IMG/VR virus record: IMGVR_UViG_3300041809_000571
Coordinates: 1-51,840 of that record
Length of the DNA stretch: 51,840 nt
From: a virus
Direction: 5' to 3' (one strand)
Of the stretch, positions 2,815 through 41,008 are shown in pieces (within the stretch, counting starts at the first letter, position 1; the number at the start of each line of letters is the position of its first letter). The notes beneath the pieces were generated by a model that saw only the letters and a program-made list of their open reading frames with translations, had not been told where the DNA came from and ran no database searches. A program made the position numbers and the translations under genes.

Positions 2815-4611
2815 ATGCCTTTACAAGCGCCACAAATCGTGCAGGTGGGTTACTCTCGCAATGATGGACCCATAGCGAGTTGGAATACCAGTTTCCCCAA
2901 CACCCCCACTCCCGGTAACACCATGCTGTTCTTTACGGTGGGCAGCGGCAATGGTATTTTCAACGCCATCGGTCCCGGCAATTGGAACTATTTCAACGGA
3001 TTCGGTGAGTCTACCTATGCCGGGGCGGCTTTCACAAGGGTTGCTCAAGCTGGAGATGGCAAGACTTATAACTTTTACATCGGTGGTGATAGTGAAGTTT
3101 ACACCGCTGTACAAGATGGAATTCTGGTGGAGATTACCGGGCAGCCCACTTTGACTTATCACAGTGGACAAGCCAACCCCACTCCCAGCACCACGGGTAC
3201 GATGACGGCGAGTTTCCCCGTCCTCAGTCCCAGCTTGGCTTTAGTGGCGTTCGTGTGGGACCAGCAAGTGACAGGAAGTGGGTTCCTCCCCGCTGGCTAC
3301 ACGCTGCAACATCAGTTTGGGGATTCCACTCACACCGGCAGCCCCGCTAACTATGCCTATGCCGCATTCCTCTCCGCCGCTGGCAGTCCTCCACCTAACA
3401 CGGTCACGGGAACAGCGACATGGGTTTCCACCCCGGCGTGGGTTGCCATCGTAGCAGGACCCGTCGCTTTGCCGTCAGTCATCATATCCTCCAACCCTAA
3501 CCCCTCGGTTGCTTCTACCCCGTTGCTTATCTCCATCAATGCCATAGGAAGCCCCACTCCCATCCCCACAGGGACAGTGACGGTAACGGATACGACCACC
3601 AGCACCGTGCTTGGAAGCGGCCTTCCTCTCGTGAATGGTATAGCCTCCTGTGTAGCAAGTTCACTCACCACAGGCGCTCACAGCATAACGGCTGCTTACA
3701 GTGGAGATGGCACCTACGCTCCCATGTCTTCGACCCTTGAACAACAGGTTGAAAGCGGCTTGGATTTCAACTCTACAACTGCCGTCAGCAGCACTCTCAA
3801 TCCGTCATTTTTTGGGGACAACGTTGAATTCGACATGACAGTTGCTCCCGTTGCCCCCGCAGTCGTGCAATCCTCCAGTAGCAACGGCGGGGGTACAACC
3901 GTCACGGTAACCTTGCCGAATTTCCCCACGATAGGCAACATCATGCTGGCTATCGGAGGAGTGAACCACGGAAACTCCCCCTCCGTCTTACCTGTGGAGT
4001 TTGATTGTCTCGGCAGTTTTTGGAATGGGAATGGCAATGCTACGGTGGGGACGCACATCGTAGAATCGGATGATGGTAAGGTGTGGACTTTCACGAAGCC
4101 GGATAGCAGCGATAACGGCGCAGCCAACGACTACTACATGATTGAACTTGCCGGAACACCCGTCATATGGGCGGCGGCAGGCACCGTGGTCAGCACCTAT
4201 GTCAGCCCCGGAAACAGCCTGCTCACCACTCCGGTTTTGCCCGGAGGTCCGGGACTGGCAATTGTCTGTTTCTTCCGTACCGCAGGCTGGGGTAATTTAA
4301 CCAATTGGTTACCCAGTGGATATGCTAAACCTCTATGGTTGAACGCCGACTCCGCTGCTTACCTTGGCATGGTCCCCAACTCTGCGGTTACGGCGAATAT
4401 CAGTGTGGGTTCAGGCACGGAAGTTCCTTATGTGGTGGTGCAAGTTTTCGGGGGAGCCGGATACCCCTTGGGCAATGTGGTCTTGACTGATGACGTGGGA
4501 AGTTTCTCTCCTCAGACCCTTCCCCTATCAAGTGGAACGGCATCCTATAGCACCACTGCTCTTGCCGTTGACTATCACACCATCACAGCGACGTATGGGG
4601 GAGGTGCCTAA
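2815..4611 (+). CDS. bacterial Ig-like (Big) repeat-containing structural protein, putative tail fibre / decoration
   Basis: repeated HSITAAYSGDGTY / HTITATYGGGA modules; SD AAGAGGA; conserved N-terminal modules (PNTPTPGNTMLFFTVGSGNG, FPTIGNIMLAIGGVNHG). Confidence 0.6.
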   Translation: MPLQAPQIVQVGYSRNDGPIASWNTSFPNTPTPGNTMLFFTVGSGNGIFNAIGPGNWNYFNGFGESTYAGAAFTRVAQAGDGKTYNFYIGGDSEVYTAVQDGILVEITGQPTLTYHSGQANPTPSTTGTMTASFPVLSPSLALVAFVWDQQVTGSGFLPAGYTLQHQFGDSTHTGSPANYAYAAFLSAAGSPPPNTVTGTATWVSTPAWVAIVAGPVALPSVIISSNPNPSVASTPLLISINAIGSPTPIPTGTVTVTDTTTSTVLGSGLPLVNGIASCVASSLTTGAHSITAAYSGDGTYAPMSSTLEQQVESGLDFNSTTAVSSTLNPSFFGDNVEFDMTVAPVAPAVVQSSSSNGGGTTVTVTLPNFPTIGNIMLAIGGVNHGNSPSVLPVEFDCLGSFWNGNGNATVGTHIVESDDGKVWTFTKPDSSDNGAANDYYMIELAGTPVIWAAAGTVVSTYVSPGNSLLTTPVLPGGPGLAIVCFFRTAGWGNLTNWLPSGYAKPLWLNADSAAYLGMVPNSAVTANISVGSGTEVPYVVVQVFGGAGYPLGNVVLTDDVGSFSPQTLPLSSGTASYSTTALAVDYHTITATYGGGA

Positions 4612-5579
4612 TGCCTGCTACCCCAACAATCATGGTCGTCAACACCCCGTCCACTTCCTACTCGGGGCAAACGGTGCAGTTTGTCGTCACGGTAAGCGGC
4701 GGTGCCGGAACGCCCACAGGCACGGTGACCTTCTCATCCAATCTGGATGGGACCATGGGGATAGTGACGCTCGCCAGTGGAGCGGCCCTGTTCACTGACA
4801 GCATTCTTACCATCAACTCCCACACCATCACCGCCACTTACAGCGGGGATGTAAACTACGATTCAGGGGTGCAGACGGTCGGGCAGACCGTGGACCAATA
4901 CTCCTTTGGGAGTTACAGTTTTGCTGGTAGCAGTAATTTTTTGACCCAAAACGTGGAGTCCAAGGCGGTCCCCACCCTCACCCTTCTTAGCACGGAAAAC
5001 CCCTCCCGGTATGGGGATGCGGTCACTTTTAACATCACAGTGACCGGGTCATCCGGGACACCCACGGGAACGATTACGTTGACCGACAGCCTGAGTGGCT
5101 TCCCCCCGCAGACGCTCTCTTTGGTTGCCGGGGCGACCTCTTACGGACCCATCTCCACCCTGTCCACTGCCAGTCACCTCATCACAGCAGCATATAGTGG
5201 GGATACCACCTACAACTCATCAAACACTAACCTCATCCAGCTTGTTTTGAGCCAGAGGGGCACGGAACTGTTTGATTTGCCGGGATTTGCTCTCTTTGCT
5301 TCTTACAGTACTGAGGGAGATACCTCTCTTCCGGCGTGGGCTACTTTTACGGCGGTGCCTTCCACCACCACAGCGGGTACTCCAGTTTACATCCTGTGGA
5401 GCAGTAACAACGTGGTAGCGGTCAGCATTGAGGGCGCTCCCAGCCTGATAAACACCAACGGTTCAGGAATTTACGAATTTACGAGTGGTTTTTCAGTCAG
5501 TACAGTAGTAACTTGCATAGCATATGACTCCTTGGGGAACATCGTAACCACGGAGAATGTGCTAATTACAATCACTTAG
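4611..5579 (+). CDS. bacterial Ig-like repeat-containing structural protein
   Basis: repeats HTITATYSGDVNYDSG / HLITAAYSGDTTYNSS; TAATG coupling with 2815..4611. Confidence 0.6.
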   Translation: MPATPTIMVVNTPSTSYSGQTVQFVVTVSGGAGTPTGTVTFSSNLDGTMGIVTLASGAALFTDSILTINSHTITATYSGDVNYDSGVQTVGQTVDQYSFGSYSFAGSSNFLTQNVESKAVPTLTLLSTENPSRYGDAVTFNITVTGSSGTPTGTITLTDSLSGFPPQTLSLVAGATSYGPISTLSTASHLITAAYSGDTTYNSSNTNLIQLVLSQRGTELFDLPGFALFASYSTEGDTSLPAWATFTAVPSTTTAGTPVYILWSSNNVVAVSIEGAPSLINTNGSGIYEFTSGFSVSTVVTCIAYDSLGNIVTTENVLITIT

Positions 5580-5639
5580 GGTGGTAAAATCCAGCTACGC
5601 CATCCTTTTATAGGGCGACCTCGCCCACAGGAGAAGAAT

Positions 5640-5876
5640 ATGGCAACAAAAATCGCAAAAGTCGATGCCGACGCAATGAACTCCTTGTACGCCGCCGAAC
5701 TCTCCAAGGTTGGTCTTAAGACCGCCGCCGAGGGCGTTGGTGACAATAAGGGTGCCCCCAAGGACCCGCAAGCGTTCGAGGACCATTCCGATTACCTCAA
5801 GACTCTCGAATCCGCAATGAAGGATGACAAGAGCGTTGAGGGCGGAACTGACCCCAACGACAAGGTGCTCGATTAA
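5640..5876 (+). CDS. small acidic hypothetical protein
   Basis: SD CAGGAGAAG 4 nt before ATG; 78 aa. Confidence 0.5.
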   Translation: MATKIAKVDADAMNSLYAAELSKVGLKTAAEGVGDNKGAPKDPQAFEDHSDYLKTLESAMKDDKSVEGGTDPNDKVLD

Positions 5877-5885
5877 GGGGGAAAC

Positions 5886-7463
5886 ATGCTTCCCTGCAAA
5901 GTGGCGGCATCCCGCCTCCTAGCGCCGGGGCGCATCGTCGGTTCTATTGACGGTCAGCCTTGGCTCGTTTTGTCTAGTATCAAGACCAAGGACGGCCTGA
6001 ATTTCAAACTCGCCGACCTCATGGGTAGCCCTGTCTCTACGCCGCCGCACTTCGACCCCATCCCTCTCAGGTTCTCCCGGTTTGCTTCCATGCTGCATCT
6101 TGCCTACAACAAGGACATTGATGCTATGATGAAGGCGCTCATCCGGGACGCACAGCTTCCCGTGGACCAGAGCATGAATTGGGTAAAGTTTCTTTATTCC
6201 ACTCTCGCCAAACAACTACCGACCACAGATGAAGACAAAATAGATGAGGTTCTCCACTTCCTCATCTTCAAGGTTTGGGAGCGGCATATCTTGACGGAGC
6301 AGTTCCCCGGTATCGTGGAAAACTTCACCCAGAAGAATCCCGATTTCGCCAAGCTACCATTGGATAAACAAGTCACTTGGGTTCTCAGGAATTATCTCGT
6401 GGGAGGCAAGGCGGGCTGGCCCGGCAGAAAGCAGGAGGCTATCCGGTACCTTAAGCGCATCATCGAAGGACAGGATATTTCCGCCGACGATGTTGAACAG
6501 GGGATTGGTGAAGACAATGTCGTGTCCATGGAACCTTACACCGCCGAGGGGGAAGAACCGGAAGCTTCTATTCTCGATACCCCTGAGTATGCCACAGGCA
6601 CGCAAGCACAGGAGCAGGTGGAAGAAGACACCGACATGGGTGACTACCGTGCTCCATGGGAACGGCGCACACCGGGCAAGTTCACTGAGCCATTTGGTGA
6701 GTGGCTTGCCAAGAAGTACAGCATCAGCATCGTGGAACAAATACTCCGTATTCTCTCCATCCTTTACAACGACATGAAGACCTACAAGAAGATGCCGAAA
6801 ATAAAGGACGTGGAGGAGGAGTGGCAGGCATTGGAAAAGGAGTATGCGGAGGCTTCCCCGGAAGCAGGTTTAGCTTCTCCGAAACAGCGAAAATTCAAGA
6901 CCCTGTTTGACAAGCTTCCGAGCCTGATATCCGCCTATGTGGGGATACACTATAGAGGGCAGGAAAGTACGCTACCTACGGTGGTAAGGATTCTCAACAA
7001 CATCGGAATTGAGGAGCGCCAGAGAGAGCGGGAAGGCCAAGAAGAAACTGCGAGCGGTGCAACCGCAGTTCCCACGGAAGAGGCGGCAATGCGGTCGCTT
7101 CCCGCCGAGGGTAAGTTCTCCGCCGCCAAGAAACAGTGGGAAACTCCCCGTTGTAAGGCTTGCGGGACCACCAAGGATATCAAGAAGTGCCCCGGTTGCG
7201 AGGACAAGTTTTGTCCCCTCTGTGTGCGGGACCATCATGCTAATCATCCGGGACACGACCTTCTGTTGACAAGTTCAAAGAAGGTGCAGGCAGCTAACCT
7301 ACAACAAGCTCAAATTGACCCGGAAGAACAGGTAGACCTTAAAACTGACCCTTGGGGAGCATTAAGTGAAAGTTTGAGTAATACCCCCGACCAAAAAAAT
7401 ACTCCCTTAAAACATACCGTGATGCCCGAATTGCCCTCGGGACCCTACCATATGGCTCGGTAA
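5886..7463 (+). CDS. hypothetical protein with C-terminal Cys/His zinc-finger (MYND/HIT/B-box-like)
   Basis: SD AAGGGGG; C-terminus CKACGTTKDIKKCPGCEDKFCPLCVRDHHANHPGHD. Confidence 0.55.
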   Translation: MLPCKVAASRLLAPGRIVGSIDGQPWLVLSSIKTKDGLNFKLADLMGSPVSTPPHFDPIPLRFSRFASMLHLAYNKDIDAMMKALIRDAQLPVDQSMNWVKFLYSTLAKQLPTTDEDKIDEVLHFLIFKVWERHILTEQFPGIVENFTQKNPDFAKLPLDKQVTWVLRNYLVGGKAGWPGRKQEAIRYLKRIIEGQDISADDVEQGIGEDNVVSMEPYTAEGEEPEASILDTPEYATGTQAQEQVEEDTDMGDYRAPWERRTPGKFTEPFGEWLAKKYSISIVEQILRILSILYNDMKTYKKMPKIKDVEEEWQALEKEYAEASPEAGLASPKQRKFKTLFDKLPSLISAYVGIHYRGQESTLPTVVRILNNIGIEERQREREGQEETASGATAVPTEEAAMRSLPAEGKFSAAKKQWETPRCKACGTTKDIKKCPGCEDKFCPLCVRDHHANHPGHDLLLTSSKKVQAANLQQAQIDPEEQVDLKTDPWGALSESLSNTPDQKNTPLKHTVMPELPSGPYHMAR

Positions 7464-7518
7464 AGTTTTGAACTATTTAAACCACTTAATGAGAAACCCT
7501 GCGTGGAGAGGGTAGTTT

Positions 7519-8321
7519 ATGTTTATCTATATTATCACAAACACTGAAAACGGGAAAATTTATATTGGCAAACGACCAACCCAACCTTGTATACTTATTT
7601 GAAGAGAAAGCTTGGGGAAGCTCAAAGGGGAAGGCAATCTCATCTTTTTAAAGCGATGAGAAAATATCCCAAAGAGGTATGGGATATTCATTCTCTTATT
7701 TCTTGTCTTACTACTAATTGGCAGCTTAATCTTTGGGAAAAAGCTCTGATATGGGCTTTCAATTCGTGTAATCCTGAAATTGGATATAATATTTGTGAAG
7801 GAGGAGAAGGAGTCACATCGGAAGACCGAAGACGGATGTGGACTAGTTCCGAGTATCGTAATAAGATGAGCAGGATTAGGAAACAATTGTGGGCCGACCC
7901 TGAGTACCGAAACAAAGTGAATAAACTTAGGGAAGAAGCAAAAAATAAACCGGAAGTAAAAGCCAAAATGCTTGAGGGCAGCAGGAAGGCAGCATCCAAC
8001 CCGGAAATTCGTGCTAAGATAAGCGAAGCCACTAAGAAACAATGGGAGGACCCGGAGTTTCGTGCTAAGATTAGTGCCGCTTCCAAGAAGGCCATGTCTA
8101 ATCCTGATAAGCAATTAAAGATGCAAGAGGCTGCTAGAAAAGCACAATCTAACCCAACAAATCGTATGAAACACTTGGAAGGCATAAGAAAAATGTGGGC
8201 TGACCCAGAAAAGCGTAAGAAAATGATTGAGGACAGACGACGGGCCTTGTCCGACCCCAATAGGCAGTTAAAGATGCAAGAAGCCGCCAAAATAGCACGG
8301 TCAAGAATGGTGGCGGCTTAA
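7519..8321 (+). pseudogene. GIY-YIG homing endonuclease with C-terminal NUMOD3 repeats, interrupted by a frameshift near 7570
   Basis: ATG 7519 gives MFIYIITNTENGKIYIGKR (GIY-YIG motif) and stops at 7602. The rest of the GIY-YIG domain (SHLFKAMRKYPKE...NLWEKALIWAFNSCNPEIGYNICEGGEG) plus six NUMOD3-like repeats (NPEIRAKISEA, DPEFRAKISAA, NPDKQLKMQEAA...) lies in the -1 frame, 7587..8321. Region is AT-rich relative to its flanks. Confidence 0.65.
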
Positions 8322-8371
8322 CTATTGGTCTCTTAAGAAGAGAGTAGGTGCGGATTAAGGGGGTTGGACGC

Positions 8372-9448
8372 ATGGAAGTAGTAGGACATGAAATTCCCAA
8401 GGAGAGTAAGCGGATGACCCCCGAGGAAGCCGGGTACATGGAGCTTGCCGGGGCGAAGAAAGAAGGCGACTGTAAAATAGTCGTTGTGCCGGGAGGCGTG
8501 AGCTTCCAGCTTGGGTGTTGCAATGAGTTTGAAGCGTTCGATGACAGCGTGCAGAAGTTCTCCTGTGGGACCTGCGAATATCGTAAAAGCAAGGCTACAG
8601 GAACCTTAGTAGGAGAGGAACCTATGGAAAAGACAAAGACATCAAGGGAAATTTTGCGTGAAAAAGTTGGTGCTCTCGCCGAGAGCAAGCGGGCGAACGT
8701 GTATGCCCGGATGCGGGAAGTTGCCGCCAAGGAGCCGAGGCAGGTTGCCGCCGCACTGGGCGAGCTTGCCGTTTCCTGTGGTGTCATGGCAAGTCAGTTC
8801 TCCGCCATGAAGGACCATCTGGACCTCAACGAGGCCCCCCGGACGGCATCCTTGCAGGCTCGGGTAGCCGCCCGCAAGAAGTTTGCCGCCGAGTTCCGCC
8901 GCCGTGCCACGGATAACCCGGAGCAGATTGCCGATGCGGTGATTCAGCTTTATCACAACATTGACGAAATTGCCGCCGCTATCGAGAGTTTTGCCGAGAA
9001 TATGGGCATTGAGTTGCCCGCACCCGGCGATGAAGCCGGAATCGAAGGACCGGAAGAATTCGGAAACGAAGCTCCTGAGTCTCCCGAAGTTCCCGCCGCC
9101 CCCGAGGGTCTGGAGGAACAGGGTGAGGAGCTTGAGAGTCCCAAGGAAGAAGCCGCCGAGGAAGCCGCAGGTACCGAGGGTACCGAAGCCGACGAAGAGC
9201 AGGACGAGGAGCTTGCCAAGGAAGCAAACGCAGCCGGGGGAGCCGGATTCGTCACCGACCGGGATGAGGAAGGCAAGCCCAAGCCGCCCGAGAAGGTGAA
9301 GAGCAAGGAAGCCACGGGTGGAGCCGGGTTCGTTACTGACCGGGATGACAAGGCGGAACCGAAGCCGGTTGAAAAGGCGGAGATTCCCCGCAGTCAGGGT
9401 GAAGCGGCCATTAAGCAGTCAGCCCGGCGCATCGCCGGTTGGGAATAA
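8372..9448 (+). CDS. acidic Glu-rich protein with tandem GGAGFVTDRD(E/D)..KP repeats
   Basis: ATG 8372 after GGGGG; alternative GTG start at 8348; low-complexity acidic C-terminal half. Confidence 0.5.
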   Translation: MEVVGHEIPKESKRMTPEEAGYMELAGAKKEGDCKIVVVPGGVSFQLGCCNEFEAFDDSVQKFSCGTCEYRKSKATGTLVGEEPMEKTKTSREILREKVGALAESKRANVYARMREVAAKEPRQVAAALGELAVSCGVMASQFSAMKDHLDLNEAPRTASLQARVAARKKFAAEFRRRATDNPEQIADAVIQLYHNIDEIAAAIESFAENMGIELPAPGDEAGIEGPEEFGNEAPESPEVPAAPEGLEEQGEELESPKEEAAEEAAGTEGTEADEEQDEELAKEANAAGGAGFVTDRDEEGKPKPPEKVKSKEATGGAGFVTDRDDKAEPKPVEKAEIPRSQGEAAIKQSARRIAGWE

Positions 9449-9516
9449 GCAACCTATTTCCCGTTAAATCCGTCAAACATACCGAAACCCCGTATTGGGG
9501 TATATGGAGGTGTGCC

Positions 9517-10260
9517 ATGAAGAAGCTTCTTTGCGGTATCGTGGTCCTGTTCCTCAGTCTTTGTGTCCCTGTTTATGCCCAGCACGGCGGAGGGGGTAGG
9601 TCAGCCTCACCCAGCGCCGGTCGAAGCGTAGGAAGCCATTCTAGCGCTCCTGCGGGGCATCCTAGCACAGTTCATAGCAATCAGGTCCGGGGAAACTACC
9701 ACGGCTCCTCTGAACGCCGGGCCGAGGCCAACGGGCAGCGGGCAGCCGGGATGGAACGCAGCCGCCCACCCCTACATATGGCTCCCGAGCATTACAACTC
9801 TTATTTTGGTCATGAACACCCCTTCCGTCCATGGCACTCCCACCCCTACCTTGGCTACTCCGGGTATGGCTGGCATCCCCATTTCTGGTACGGAGGATTT
9901 TATTGGGGTTTCTCTCTCTGGCCTTACGAGGTAGGACCCTACTGGTGGGGCTATGACGACCCCATCTATATCGTGGTGGAGACTGACGGTTGCTACTACG
10001 CCAAAGATGACGAACATCCGAATGACGAGATAAAGCTGACCGAGGCGTCCGTACAGGAGACGGGAACGGTCAAGATTGTGGATAAGGTCAAGGGTGATTC
10101 CATCTACATCGACAAGGCGCTGGCGGGCTACACGGGCGACCTTAAGAGCTTCCGGCTACCGGTCGGGGAACACAGCCTTGAAGTCAAAGGTCAGGGTCCG
10201 TACTTCGGTGAGGATATCATGGTGCTCGCCGACCATGAACTCACTGTACAGGTCCCTTAA
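9517..10260 (+). CDS. secreted protein with N-terminal signal peptide
   Basis: SD GGAGG 6 nt before ATG 9517; MKKLLCGIVVLFLSLCVPVYA signal-peptide-like N-terminus; His/Tyr/Trp-rich. Confidence 0.6.
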   Translation: MKKLLCGIVVLFLSLCVPVYAQHGGGGRSASPSAGRSVGSHSSAPAGHPSTVHSNQVRGNYHGSSERRAEANGQRAAGMERSRPPLHMAPEHYNSYFGHEHPFRPWHSHPYLGYSGYGWHPHFWYGGFYWGFSLWPYEVGPYWWGYDDPIYIVVETDGCYYAKDDEHPNDEIKLTEASVQETGTVKIVDKVKGDSIYIDKALAGYTGDLKSFRLPVGEHSLEVKGQGPYFGEDIMVLADHELTVQVP

Positions 10261-10588
10261 TGTCTAAGAAACCTCCGCAGTCGGCGCAGTACGTTACGGT
10301 GACCGGGTCACCAATGCGGAGGCTTTCCTCCACGCTCAGCATCCGGTTAAGGTCTTCCGGCTTGTAGTTCTTCAACTCCACAGGCCACATGGCGACATCC
10401 AGCTTCATGCACTCTTCGTAGGTGGTGCCAAGGTGAGGCCACAGGCCGAGTTCCAACACCTTAGTCACCGCTTCGTTGTTGCCCTCCACATCCACGATGA
10501 TGCAGCCGAACGCCTGTTGCCCCCGTGGCTTGCTCTTGTCGGCGAAGCTGAGCCATGTACCGATGGTCTGTACCTTCTTTTTTCTCAT
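10241..10588 (-). CDS. hypothetical protein
   Basis: ATG 10588 just after the upstream stop; GAGGTG SD; last gene of operon P1. Confidence 0.5.
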   Translation of the reverse strand: MRKKKVQTIGTWLSFADKSKPRGQQAFGCIIVDVEGNNEAVTKVLELGLWPHLGTTYEECMKLDVAMWPVELKNYKPEDLNRMLSVEESLRIGDPVTVTYCADCGGFLDIKGPVQ

Positions 10589-25806: not shown

Positions 25807-26024
25807 GCAAGCTCCATTTCATAATCTTCGGGATGGGGAACGGGAGGGCCGCTGTAATAGGGATTGCGGTACCACACGTCCCGGTCAGAAAGAATCCACG
25901 CACGGTCGGGGTGCATGGCACCCACGTTCGTAGCATACTCCCTATCAGCTTCCGCTTGAGTTGCCATGTGGTCGGGCGGGTCAGGCTCAAAATCAAACAT
26001 AGAAGCTTCGGAATCGAATGCCAT
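25803..26024 (-). CDS. hypothetical acidic protein (first gene of operon P9)
   Basis: ATG 26024 follows cassette P9 (GGGAGGaaacaccATG). Confidence 0.5.
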   Translation of the reverse strand: MAFDSEASMFDFEPDPPDHMATQAEADREYATNVGAMHPDRAWILSDRDVWYRNPYYSGPPVPHPEDYEMELA

Positions 26025-26031
26025 GGTGTTT

Positions 26032-26054
26032 CCTCCCACTCTCAGTATACCACG
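26032..26054 (-). promoter_or_regulatory. conserved promoter+SD cassette P9
   Basis: tcgTGGTATACTgagagtGGGAGG. Confidence 0.6.
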
Positions 26055-26109
26055 AGATACACCAAAGTTACATGAATTTTTTTCTATGGAACCCTTATGT
26101 AGGAGAATT

Positions 26110-28149
26110 ATGGCTGGAAGCAGTCGTTTCAAAAAAGGCGGAATGATTGGTAAGCTGGTGTCGGAGCAGATAGCGAATGCTCCCCAACTGCTTAACGCCA
26201 TAGACTTTATTGAGTCCATACAGGGATTCAATGTGGAGTTGTTCCCCATCCAGAGGATGATTGTCAAGGCGATATTCGCCGTTCCCTTCGACTACAAGCC
26301 CAAGCCCGTGCCCATGTTTGACGTGTTCCGGGAGAAGCTCAACCGCATCGTGTCCGAAGAGGAATGCCTCCACATTCTCCACGAAGAGGGCAGATGCAAC
26401 ATCGGCGACTGGCGGGACATCCCCGAGCGGGGATACAATGAAGCCTGCATTATCGCCGGTCGTCGTGGTGGTAAGTCGGAGGTCGTAGCGGCCATTGGGG
26501 GATACAAGCTGTATCTCCTCCTTAACCAGAAATCTCCGCAGGAGTATTTTGGTCTCGTGCCCGGCAGTCCGATAGACTTCACCTTTTTGGCGCAGGACGA
26601 CTCCGGGTCCAACCGCCTCTACAACAAGCTCCGGGAAGGTGTCAACCGGGCACCCTTCTTCGGACCTTACCTCAAAAGCAGCAGCGGGAGCGTTTTGAAG
26701 TTCGTGACGGAGTCGGACCGGGGCAAGCCCGAGGTCACTCCCACGGTCATCTGCGAGTCCCGGCCTTGCACCACCAATGCTACCCGGTCGCCTTCCAACG
26801 TGTTTCTGGCCTTGGACGAGTTCGCCCACTTCCGGTCGGAGGTGGGGAGTACCTCGGATGAGGTCTACGGAGCGGCGAAGCCCTCCACGGCAAACTTCCA
26901 CCACGCCGAGCTTCCCAGTGGCGAATGGATAAGCAAAAAGACCATGCAGTTGCTTCCCCCCGAGGAGTACCGGGAGTTTCAGGACTCGCTTGTTCTCAGC
27001 ATTTCTTCGCCCATGACTCGTGTTGGTAAGATGTACGAGCTTCACAAGTTGGCGTTAGAGAAGGGCAAGGACTCCAACATCTTCACCATGCGGGTTTCCA
27101 CCGCTGAGATGAACCCCGAGATTCTGTCCAAGTTCCTGCACGACGAGTACGAGACCAACTCCCTGACCTTCAAGGCGGAGTATGGCGGGCAGTTCTTGGA
27201 CTCCTCCGAAACCTACGTCACTGAGGCCCAGATTAGGGCTTGTACGGATGTACAATACACGGATGAGCAATTCCCCAAGCCCATCCCCAGCACCGCCCGG
27301 CTGAACCTCGTTCGGTTCCACCCCTCCTGTGTGGGCAGACAATATTTCTGGGGTGTTGACCTTGGTATGATGAAAAACGCAACAGCCGTTGCTATCGGAC
27401 ATTTGGAGCACACGGGCGGTAAGAACCCCATCACCCTCGTTTATGACTACATCGACCGCATGATGGTGGGGGAGAAGTTCGAGGGTCCCGGCGTGGAGAT
27501 GCTCCCCGGAATTGAGAAATACGTCAAGTATCAAGCCCTGCCCTTGGAGGACATCCTCCTGTGGCTCCGGGCGCTCAACCGGGTGATGCCCTGCTACCGG
27601 GGGGTCACTGACCAGCACGGTGGTCAGCAACTCGTCCAATTGCTGGAGATAAACCAAATCTACAACGTGGAGCTTATCAACCTCACCACGGTTATCAATA
27701 GCCAGATGGCGTTCAGCTTAAAAGGCTACATGGATAACAAGCGGTGCCGGTTCCCCTATGTGCCCAAGTTCATGGATGAAATCCGGCTGGTAGAAGCGGA
27801 ATACGTCGGCAAATACCAGATTCGAGTGCAGGCCCCCGAGGAGAAGGGAGCCACGGATGACATGTGCGATGCCGTGGAAGAGGTCGCTTGGGTAGCCCAG
27901 AAGTGGTTGATGGAAGAAGGTGGGCTACGACAGGACCCCGGAGGCACCAGTCTGGCAATGCAGGAACAGTTGATGAAAACCCCTGTTCCTATTATGAACC
28001 TCGATAGTGTGTCTATGACGGAAATCAAGGTCATAGAAAGAATGCGTAAGTTACAGAGTTCATTGATGATGTCCCCCGGAACCTCGGTGGTAAGAAACCC
28101 CTTCCATGTGCGTGGAACTGCCCGTATGGGAGGCCGGGGAAGGAGATAA
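26110..28149 (+). CDS. terL: terminase large subunit
   Basis: Walker A IIAGRRGGKSE, Walker B LALDEF, C-terminal nuclease-sized domain; SD AGGAG; about 680 aa. Confidence 0.8.
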   Translation: MAGSSRFKKGGMIGKLVSEQIANAPQLLNAIDFIESIQGFNVELFPIQRMIVKAIFAVPFDYKPKPVPMFDVFREKLNRIVSEEECLHILHEEGRCNIGDWRDIPERGYNEACIIAGRRGGKSEVVAAIGGYKLYLLLNQKSPQEYFGLVPGSPIDFTFLAQDDSGSNRLYNKLREGVNRAPFFGPYLKSSSGSVLKFVTESDRGKPEVTPTVICESRPCTTNATRSPSNVFLALDEFAHFRSEVGSTSDEVYGAAKPSTANFHHAELPSGEWISKKTMQLLPPEEYREFQDSLVLSISSPMTRVGKMYELHKLALEKGKDSNIFTMRVSTAEMNPEILSKFLHDEYETNSLTFKAEYGGQFLDSSETYVTEAQIRACTDVQYTDEQFPKPIPSTARLNLVRFHPSCVGRQYFWGVDLGMMKNATAVAIGHLEHTGGKNPITLVYDYIDRMMVGEKFEGPGVEMLPGIEKYVKYQALPLEDILLWLRALNRVMPCYRGVTDQHGGQQLVQLLEINQIYNVELINLTTVINSQMAFSLKGYMDNKRCRFPYVPKFMDEIRLVEAEYVGKYQIRVQAPEEKGATDDMCDAVEEVAWVAQKWLMEEGGLRQDPGGTSLAMQEQLMKTPVPIMNLDSVSMTEIKVIERMRKLQSSLMMSPGTSVVRNPFHVRGTARMGGRGRR

Positions 28150-40180: not shown

Positions 40181-40433
40181 GGCTGAGACTGTAGGGAAGC
40201 ATGGACCGGCGCACACCGGAGTCTTTCTGTGGTTCTACCTCGGGTTTGTAGTCGAAGTCCGCAGGCTCGTGGGGATGCATATCCAACCACTCCGCCACGA
40301 CACTCCAAACTTCATCGTCAGAATCGAGGACATCCAAGGTAAGTAGGGGATTCTCTCCGAAGTCTTCCGATTGAAACTCCCGCCACGGAAGTTCTCCCGC
40401 AATCTTCATTCCCCCTCGGGTCAAGAAAACCAT
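40128..40433 (-). CDS. hypothetical acidic protein
   Basis: 1-nt stop/start overlap with the Endo VII gene; its 3' end overlaps 39671..40180 by 53 nt. Confidence 0.4.
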   Translation of the reverse strand: MVFLTRGGMKIAGELPWREFQSEDFGENPLLTLDVLDSDDEVWSVVAEWLDMHPHEPADFDYKPEVEPQKDSGVRRSMLPYSLSPMLRRASAAGYPAFRRG

Positions 40434-41008
40434 TACGCCTCCTTAACATTTATAGCAAGAGTGGTTTTGTTATGATATTTATCAAGATAGGTTTTGGCGG
40501 CTTCATAACGCATATGATTTGCTTCTAAGAGACCCACTAAAAAATTGCAAGCAGCGCACAGAAGTCCACGATTTTCTCCAGTAAGATGGTCGTGGTCTAC
40601 CATAAAGGGCAGGTTATTTTTTCCATCCCTAGTTTTTCCATTATCAGAAACCCCACAAATGGCACATTTTCCGTTTTGCTTGACTAATAAAGCAGCATAT
40701 TCCTCTAATGTCATTTTGTATTTTCTGAGCAAGTGTCGTGCTCTTGCGATAGATTGATATGCCTTAAGCTTTTCAGGATTGACAGCTATCTCTGTCTTGA
40801 AATAACAATTCCCACAGATTCCTCCCCCTTCTAGTTTCTTTCGCTTTTTGCAAAGAGAACAAATACCATGGCGTTTATCAGCCCTACAAGCCTTACATTT
40901 CCTACTCCAATAAATCCGCACTTCACCGGAAACGAGAGCACAAGGACGACGAGAAAAGTTATTTTCTAGGTCTAATTCTTTTTGACATTTCAAACAAGTC
41001 TTAAGCAT
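40433..41008 (-). CDS. Endonuclease VII-like (HNH) nuclease, AT-rich free-standing gene (putative homing endonuclease)
   Basis: CAICGVSDNG...MVDHDHLTGENRGLLCAACNFLVGLL; N-terminal CxxC pairs; clearly lower GC than the flanking genes. Confidence 0.65.
   Translation of the reverse strand: MLKTCLKCQKELDLENNFSRRPCALVSGEVRIYWSRKCKACRADKRHGICSLCKKRKKLEGGGICGNCYFKTEIAVNPEKLKAYQSIARARHLLRKYKMTLEEYAALLVKQNGKCAICGVSDNGKTRDGKNNLPFMVDHDHLTGENRGLLCAACNFLVGLLEANHMRYEAAKTYLDKYHNKTTLAINVKEA

Follow-up and report, generated by a model that had tools for sequence, protein, structure and literature searches.

The window analyzed here, a stretch of 51,840 nucleotides, derives from a jumbo phage and belongs to a contig of 364 kb. 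Its genes include one for the terminase large subunit (25966-28149), with Ig-like proteins encoded upstream, and an endonuclease VII-like gene (40433-41008). At 7519-8321 the window contains a gene for a GIY-YIG homing endonuclease (homing endonuclease gene, HEG) whose coding sequence is distributed over two reading frames; the features of this locus are collected in Table 1. A sequence-only reading had described a GIY-YIG gene split between two frames with a stop at 7602, and both frames were confirmed. ORF A begins with ATG 7519, continues through codons 1-18 (MFIYIITNTENGKIYIGK) and nine out-of-frame codons (RPTQPCILI), and terminates at TGA 7600-7602. The −1 frame is open from 7548, immediately after a TGA at 7545-7547, to TAA 8319-8321, and from 7573 it encodes TTNPTLYTYLKRK..., also given as TTNPTLYTYLKRKLGEAQRGRQSHLF.... 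Insertion of one A into GGC AAA CGA, where AAA occupies 7570-7572, yields a single ORF of 267 aa, in agreement with the ~265 aa first estimated. The low G+C content of the gene was likewise borne out, at 42.1% versus 54.4% for the window. The small hairpin that overlaps the Shine-Dalgarno sequence of the endonuclease might limit HEG translation, sequestration of the Shine-Dalgarno sequence being a known means of limiting translation of T4 HEGs. A promoter scan returned counts at chance level.

Table 1. Features of the endonuclease locus, with positions in the window.
Feature	Positions	Strand	Basis or detail
525-aa ORF: geneA (to 7259, '...HANHPGHD') fused in frame to B-N'	5886..7463	+	ORF reading
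Perfect-identity tract with the sister strain, except for a single A	7218..8415	.	1198 bp, 0 substitutions
Low-GC cassette: B-N' segment, stop, endonuclease gene, new Shine-Dalgarno and ATG	7260..8380	+	42.9% G+C
Small hairpin, 5-bp stem (ACCCT...AGGGT)	7496..7513	+	Consensus scan; overlaps endonuclease Shine-Dalgarno
ORF A, first piece of GIY-YIG gene	7519..7602	+	ORF reading; Shine-Dalgarno GGAGAGGG at 7505-7512
GIY-YIG catalytic domain, residues 1-~97, interrupted by the frameshift	7519..7808	+	Pfam PF01541, profile search, AlphaFold model
A3 run, site of 1-nt deletion	7570..7572	+	Sole sister-strain difference within 7218-8415
Remainder of endonuclease gene, −1 frame, residues 19-267	7573..8321	+	Stop TAA 8319-8321
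Nine tandem 17-residue helical repeats, [DN]PExRxK[IM]S......, presumed DNA-binding array	7845..8303	+	AlphaFold model, autocorrelation
B-C, downstream piece of split gene; start 'MEV' joins 'VGHEIPKES...'	8372..9448	+	358 aa in sister strain

The repaired protein matched the Pfam GIY-YIG family over residues 2-81, a match that spans the frameshift junction, at 27.7 bits (cut-off 22.6), and PHROG 314, 'homing endonuclease', at E=8e-22. Its best full-length relative in the protein database, P0001, shows 48% identity at 97% query coverage, and a further homolog, P0002, was aligned gap-free across the junction (YIGKTTKLELYPYLKRKLAEASRGRQSHLF). A profile built from 56 homologs identified I-TevI in the PDB (1LN0/1MK0) at E=2e-5; a search with the single sequence gave chance matches only, and I-TevI was reached by the profile and fold searches. 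The AlphaFold model based on these homologs (pLDDT 94.9) comprises an N-terminal beta-beta-alpha-alpha-beta-alpha domain, with strands at residues 2-8, 14-19 and 55-61, followed by ten helices. The modelled N-terminal domain resembles the I-TevI catalytic domain (1MK0/1LN0) with a TM score of 0.82-0.84 and an rmsd of 1.7-1.9 Å, and the best fold matches in BFVD were phage GIY-YIG, 'intron-associated' and Seg-like endonucleases.

The two motifs read 'FIY' at residues 2-4 and 'YIG' at residues 15-17, with the tyrosines Tyr4 and Tyr15. Glu74, the counterpart of E75 in I-TevI, was found in 55 of the 56 homologs, and Asn91, the counterpart of N90, in all 56. The catalytic R27 of I-TevI aligns to Thr26, in a column that holds Arg in 40 of the 56 homologs. 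This arginine is absent from the HEG and from its ten closest homologs (P0001-P0009 and P0036), in which a small residue takes its place. Over residues 25-30 (7591-7608), the HEG and its closest homologs show 'L..YL..K' versus the usual 'L..RW..H', and most lack the His as well. Because the canonical catalytic arginine is missing, even the intact 267-aa protein is a putative nuclease.

The C-terminal region of the model consists of repeat units of exactly 17 residues (n=9; lag-17 autocorrelation z=15). The initial description of at least six NUMOD3 repeats was therefore right about the presence of repeats, nine in number, but their assignment to the Pfam NUMOD3 model did not hold: this model (PF07460) found no match at E<=10 in either the whole protein or its C-terminal 170 aa. 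The same model does match the homologs P0003, P0006, P0008 and P0021 at E=1e-7 to 4e-18, and in the first three of these the NUMOD3 units fall at the position aligned with the HEG repeats. NUMOD3 units are helical, about 17-18 residues long, and have E-x-[KR]-x-K-[ILM]-S as their core. When a profile of the HEG unit was compared with the NUMOD3 units of the homologs by hhalign, the P value was 9e-4, but the probability was 9.5%, a weak match. P0021 contains TPEIRAKISEAT adjoining canonical NUMOD3 units. At best, the repeats would represent a diverged NUMOD3-like unit of 17 residues. No tandem repeats were found in the array at the DNA level, indicating that the protein repeats do not result from recent DNA duplications.

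An intact allele was found by a pattern search that tolerated either AAA or AAAA. At this position, a sister phage has GGCAAAACG where the window has GGCAAACG; the intact allele thus carries A4, read as GGC AAA ACG (G K T). The restoration of one A at 7570-7572, which had been predicted to give a contiguous protein, turned out to have a natural equivalent, since the AAAA allele in IMGVR_UViG_3300009548_000041 encodes exactly the reconstructed 267-aa protein. The sister phage is present in at least seven metagenome contigs, with ~92% nucleotide identity to the window over the block. The intact allele also occurs on JGI contigs from several samples (Ga0208687, Ga0187857, 3300039412 on a 325-kb contig, 3300037843 and 3300038418), and the neighbouring protein P0086 of the sister phage is recorded on nine contigs. 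The neighbouring 525-aa protein is 88-89% identical between window and sister. In the Phage GenBank collection, megablast of 5500-10500 gave no match, and no annotated relative was found there. Comparison with related phages, proposed earlier as a check, thus revealed an in-frame AAAA allele whose sequence is otherwise identical over 7218-8415.

These alleles bear on programmed −1 ribosomal frameshifting, or another form of recoding, by which the split gene would give full-length nuclease at a low, regulated level. The exact conserved YIGKTT protein would be restored solely by slippage at 7570-7572, where the Lys codon AAA lies. The following codon, CGA, is often slowly decoded, and phage HEG cassettes can accompany recoding, as in the case of T4 gene 60 and mobA; both points count for recoding. 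However, no X_XXY_YYZ heptamer is present in the 7548-7602 overlap or in 7519-7602, and a Lys-tRNA that had moved back by one base would have CAA to pair with. Downstream, the 100 nt at 7573-7672 fold at −20.8 kcal/mol (z=−0.49), no better than shuffled sequences, and Rfam showed no frameshift element or intron. Nor is the shift conserved: the identical sister sequence carries a plain in-frame gene, and the homologs from the protein search are single uninterrupted proteins aligned across the junction. Owing to this lack of a slippery heptamer, of downstream structure and of conservation, programmed frameshifting is very unlikely, and this option of the sequence-only reading is essentially refuted. 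Transcriptional slippage was rejected on account of the length of the A run, merely 3-4 nt.

A real lesion could also be accompanied by expression of the downstream ORF through reinitiation at TTG 7587 or ATG 7656, giving a protein that would bind DNA but not cut it, such as a repressor or a factor protecting the site. The 244-aa frame is wholly intact and free of further lesions, and the candidate restart codons overlap or adjoin the stop of ORF A (7600-7602). A lack of further lesions is, however, equally expected from a very recent deletion, a Shine-Dalgarno sequence is absent before both TTG 7587 and ATG 7656, and no sign of selection for the truncated form was seen. Reinitiation is thus regarded as quite unlikely.

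Is the missing A a property of the phage or of its assembly? In the case of a sequencing or assembly error, the phage would truly be AAAA and would contain an intact, active HEG. The window is 100% identical to part of ENA ERZ27249816 contig k141_1180871 (364,142 bp), and the Logan assembly of SRR6181340, 100% identical over 15.2 kb, also has AAA. Both assemblies, being 100% identical over 15 kb, could share one data set or the same reads, and the lesion, a homopolymer shortened by one base, is the only difference from the intact allele over 1198 bp. The two other contigs of the window strain miss the site: L004, 100% identical to the window, ends at 7545, 25 nt before it, and L011, identical except for four mismatches at its last bases, starts at 7769. 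Exact look-ups of the truncated products (161, 144, 221 and 244 aa) retrieved only the two known assemblies and a cut sister-strain contig. On the other side, the k141_ contig names point to MEGAHIT and short reads, a run of A3/A4 does not have the length at which Illumina-type data become error-prone, and the same base count was obtained from two different assemblers. The long ORFs elsewhere in the window (1604, 822 and 727 aa) are unbroken, so the assembly is not riddled with indels. A homopolymer or sequencing error, listed among the original options, is therefore unlikely, given the agreement of two assemblers and the short A run, and the deletion is presumably real rather than an assembly error.

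The two strains are not uniformly similar around the gene. The aligned flanks of the identity tract differ at 285 of 2345 bp (~12%) between window and sister, and the Poisson probability of finding zero substitutions in the 1198-bp tract is ~6e-64. Because the tract is identical while its flanks differ by ~12%, the element was probably transferred laterally in the recent past, and because the A is the only difference within the shared tract, the 1-nt deletion must be younger than this transfer. The tract at 7218-8415 points to recent gene conversion or homing in which short stretches of flank were co-converted, a type of footprint described for phage HEGs (PMC2988022). As the HEG lacks the catalytic Arg, the element could instead have been transferred by ordinary recombination or through trans-mobilisation by a neighbouring HEG.

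The HEG lies on a cassette whose G+C content contrasts with that of its flanks (42.9% vs 54-59%). Window 7259-8380 takes the place of a 199-nt segment in the relative L034 (ERZ25039540), which lacks the HEG. In L034, geneA is a separate gene of 455 aa ending in '...HANHPGHDGV*', and the next gene (geneB) is a continuous 409-aa ORF, 'MPPALKPG...DPWGLLGEAL...PLRHTVEPEIPGGPYHMVGHEIPKESERMTPEEAG...'. Both L034 and a second relative without the HEG, L029, read continuously through the empty site ('...GPYHMVGHEIPKES...' / '...GPYHM|VGHEIPKES...'). The homologous site is thus polymorphic for the presence of the HEG, with the window and the sister phage having it and L034 and L029 lacking it. Since the reading frame is continuous in these HEG-less relatives, the cassette splits a host gene, giving 'genes in pieces'. 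In the window, geneA runs on in frame into the ~65-aa module that formed the N-terminus of this gene, so that the 525-aa ORF has the tail '...DLKTDPWG...TPLKHTVMPELPSGPYHM', followed by AR and the stop TAA at 7461-7463. The downstream piece, B-C, starts at ATG 8372, separated by N8 from an AAGGGGG Shine-Dalgarno sequence at 8357-8363. In the acidic C-terminal region of the B-C gene, window 9206-9405 contains a duplicated 'GGAGFVTDRD..KPKP.EK' segment; the same region is a divergence hot spot relative to the sister strain (39 differences over 200 bp).

The module left upstream, B-N' (7260-7454), has a G+C content of 45.6%, versus 60-66% for the homologous segment in relatives. It is also nearer to the L035 type ('DLKTDPWG') than to the closer relatives L034 and L029 ('DIGQDPWG'). 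These features suggest that the N-terminal module travelled with the HEG and may have been imported from another lineage. Neither neighbour of the HEG had a protein-family match in Pfam or PHROG. The placement first proposed for the gene, free-standing and between structural genes, therefore stands only in part: the HEG is free-standing, with no intron, but it is sited inside a gene, and its neighbours are without a family match. A group I or group II intron was rejected; Rfam on 7000-8800, searched at E<=10, gave only two chance matches (E about 6), and the non-ORF sequence in the insert amounts to only 64 nt and 59 nt. Split inteins were also rejected, as no extra residues are present at the junctions; the upstream piece ends two residues past the junction and the downstream piece starts three residues before it.

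A second HEG site is located just upstream, between a 78-aa gene and geneA. In the window this site is empty, a 9-nt spacer at 5877-5885. In the sister strain it is filled by a GIY-YIG gene of classical type, 233 aa long (L028 1201-1902), and in L034 (4254-4991) and L035 (1631-2314) it is occupied by GIY-YIG+NUMOD3 genes of 245 and 227 aa, whose proteins share 42-47% identity with the window HEG over its N-terminal half. In L035, a more distant relative, a 229-aa GIY-YIG gene that belongs to the Arg-less subfamily of the HEG additionally separates geneA from geneB (3759-4448), and an HNH endonuclease gene (5073-5588) splits geneB elsewhere than in the window, with the N-terminal module in 4459-5070 and the homolog of B-C residues 75-357 in 5603-6430. 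Up to three different HEGs occur at the locus in relatives, and the locus is a recurrent HEG target that tolerates fragmentation. The 364-kb contig also carries a 214-aa GIY-YIG gene with the classical 'RW..H', on the minus strand ~2.7 kb before the window start (L002 797-1441), so that the genome has several HEGs. The endonuclease VII-like gene of the window is a 191-aa ORF on the minus strand (Pfam E=9e-18) in a stretch of reduced G+C content (44.8% over 40201-40800); proteins with EndoVII motifs can be homing endonucleases, as in the case of F-CphI (PMC6083498).

Overall, the locus most probably contains a free-standing GIY-YIG HEG whose low-GC cassette of 1.1 kb recently passed between phage lineages; loss of one A then inactivated the gene, making it a nascent pseudogene. 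Of the options first put forward, a decaying pseudogene is thus favoured, in the form of a young one with one lesion and an intact allele in the sister. Double-strand-break repair or recombination would have carried a copy of the cassette from one to the other of two diverged lineages, leaving the observed 1198-bp identity tract. In the sampled lineage, one A of the A4 run would then have been deleted, truncating the nuclease after residue 18, ahead of all catalytic residues examined except the two motif tyrosines. This deletion would correspond to the 'degeneration' phase of the homing cycle, with presumably no empty target sites left locally. Because the cassette supplies a stop to the upstream piece and a Shine-Dalgarno sequence and ATG to the downstream piece, the phage would live with the gene in pieces, and the split host gene presumably retains its function.

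A bolder reading, considered doubtful, is that the GIY-YIG subfamily works without the canonical Arg, that nine NUMOD3-derived helices read DNA, and that a cassette with a recoded target-gene fragment re-partitions a phage protein. If this were true, the array would possibly be a modular recognition domain with one repeat per site, and a 65-aa module that was N-terminal in one gene would now be C-terminal in the neighbouring one.

Among known systems, co-conversion, the degeneration cycle, defunct HEGs and genes in pieces have all been described in T4-like phages (PMC2988022, PMC2790892, PMC3045599). The window HEG shares with I-TevI and Seg-type HEGs of T4-like phages an N-terminal GIY-YIG domain that spans ~95 residues and adopts the I-TevI fold, the motif tyrosines, Glu74 and Asn91, a modular C-terminal DNA-binding region, low G+C, a presence/absence polymorphism and co-converted flanks (PMC2988022). 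Unlike I-TevI, however, it has Thr in place of Arg27, it is not located in an intron, and the window copy is frameshifted. Its C-terminus also consists of nine uniform 17-residue helices, whereas that of I-TevI contains a Zn finger, a minor-groove helix and a helix-turn-helix.

The homing cycle consists of invasion, fixation, degeneration and loss, and defunct HEGs include truncated I-TevIII in the T4 nrdB intron (PMC2790892). Like these, the window HEG is fixed in all sampled close relatives and carries a small inactivating lesion. Unlike these, its decay is at an extremely early stage, with one 1-nt deletion, zero other changes and an intact sister allele still circulating.

The closest precedent for the split gene is the genes-in-pieces nrdA of Aeromonas phage Aeh1, which is split by mobE (Friedrich et al., 2007, as cited in PMC2988022; PMC3045599). 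In both cases, a coding sequence that relatives have unbroken encloses a free-standing HEG, and the insert brings a stop and a new start. In contrast to Aeh1 nrdA, the host gene in the window matches no Pfam or PHROG family, its upstream fragment (~65 aa) continues the preceding gene, and the cassette has its own recoded, low-GC copy of the fragment. The 'fractured genes' with split inteins and a free-standing HEG (PMC2677866) are similar in that a gene is split by an inserted HEG ORF, but intein halves would not fit at the junctions in the window.

As such, the frameshift is ordinary, since decay of a HEG is expected once it is fixed, and 7519-8321 should be annotated as a pseudogene and not as two small ORFs. 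With its one-base allele pair, sharply bounded conversion tract, empty site and up to three HEGs in relatives, the locus is a clean natural record of how HEGs pass through the homing cycle and break up genes in uncultivated jumbo phages. The L034-type 'GV*-B-N' segment would provide a precise DNA target for the Arg-less GIY-YIG subfamily.
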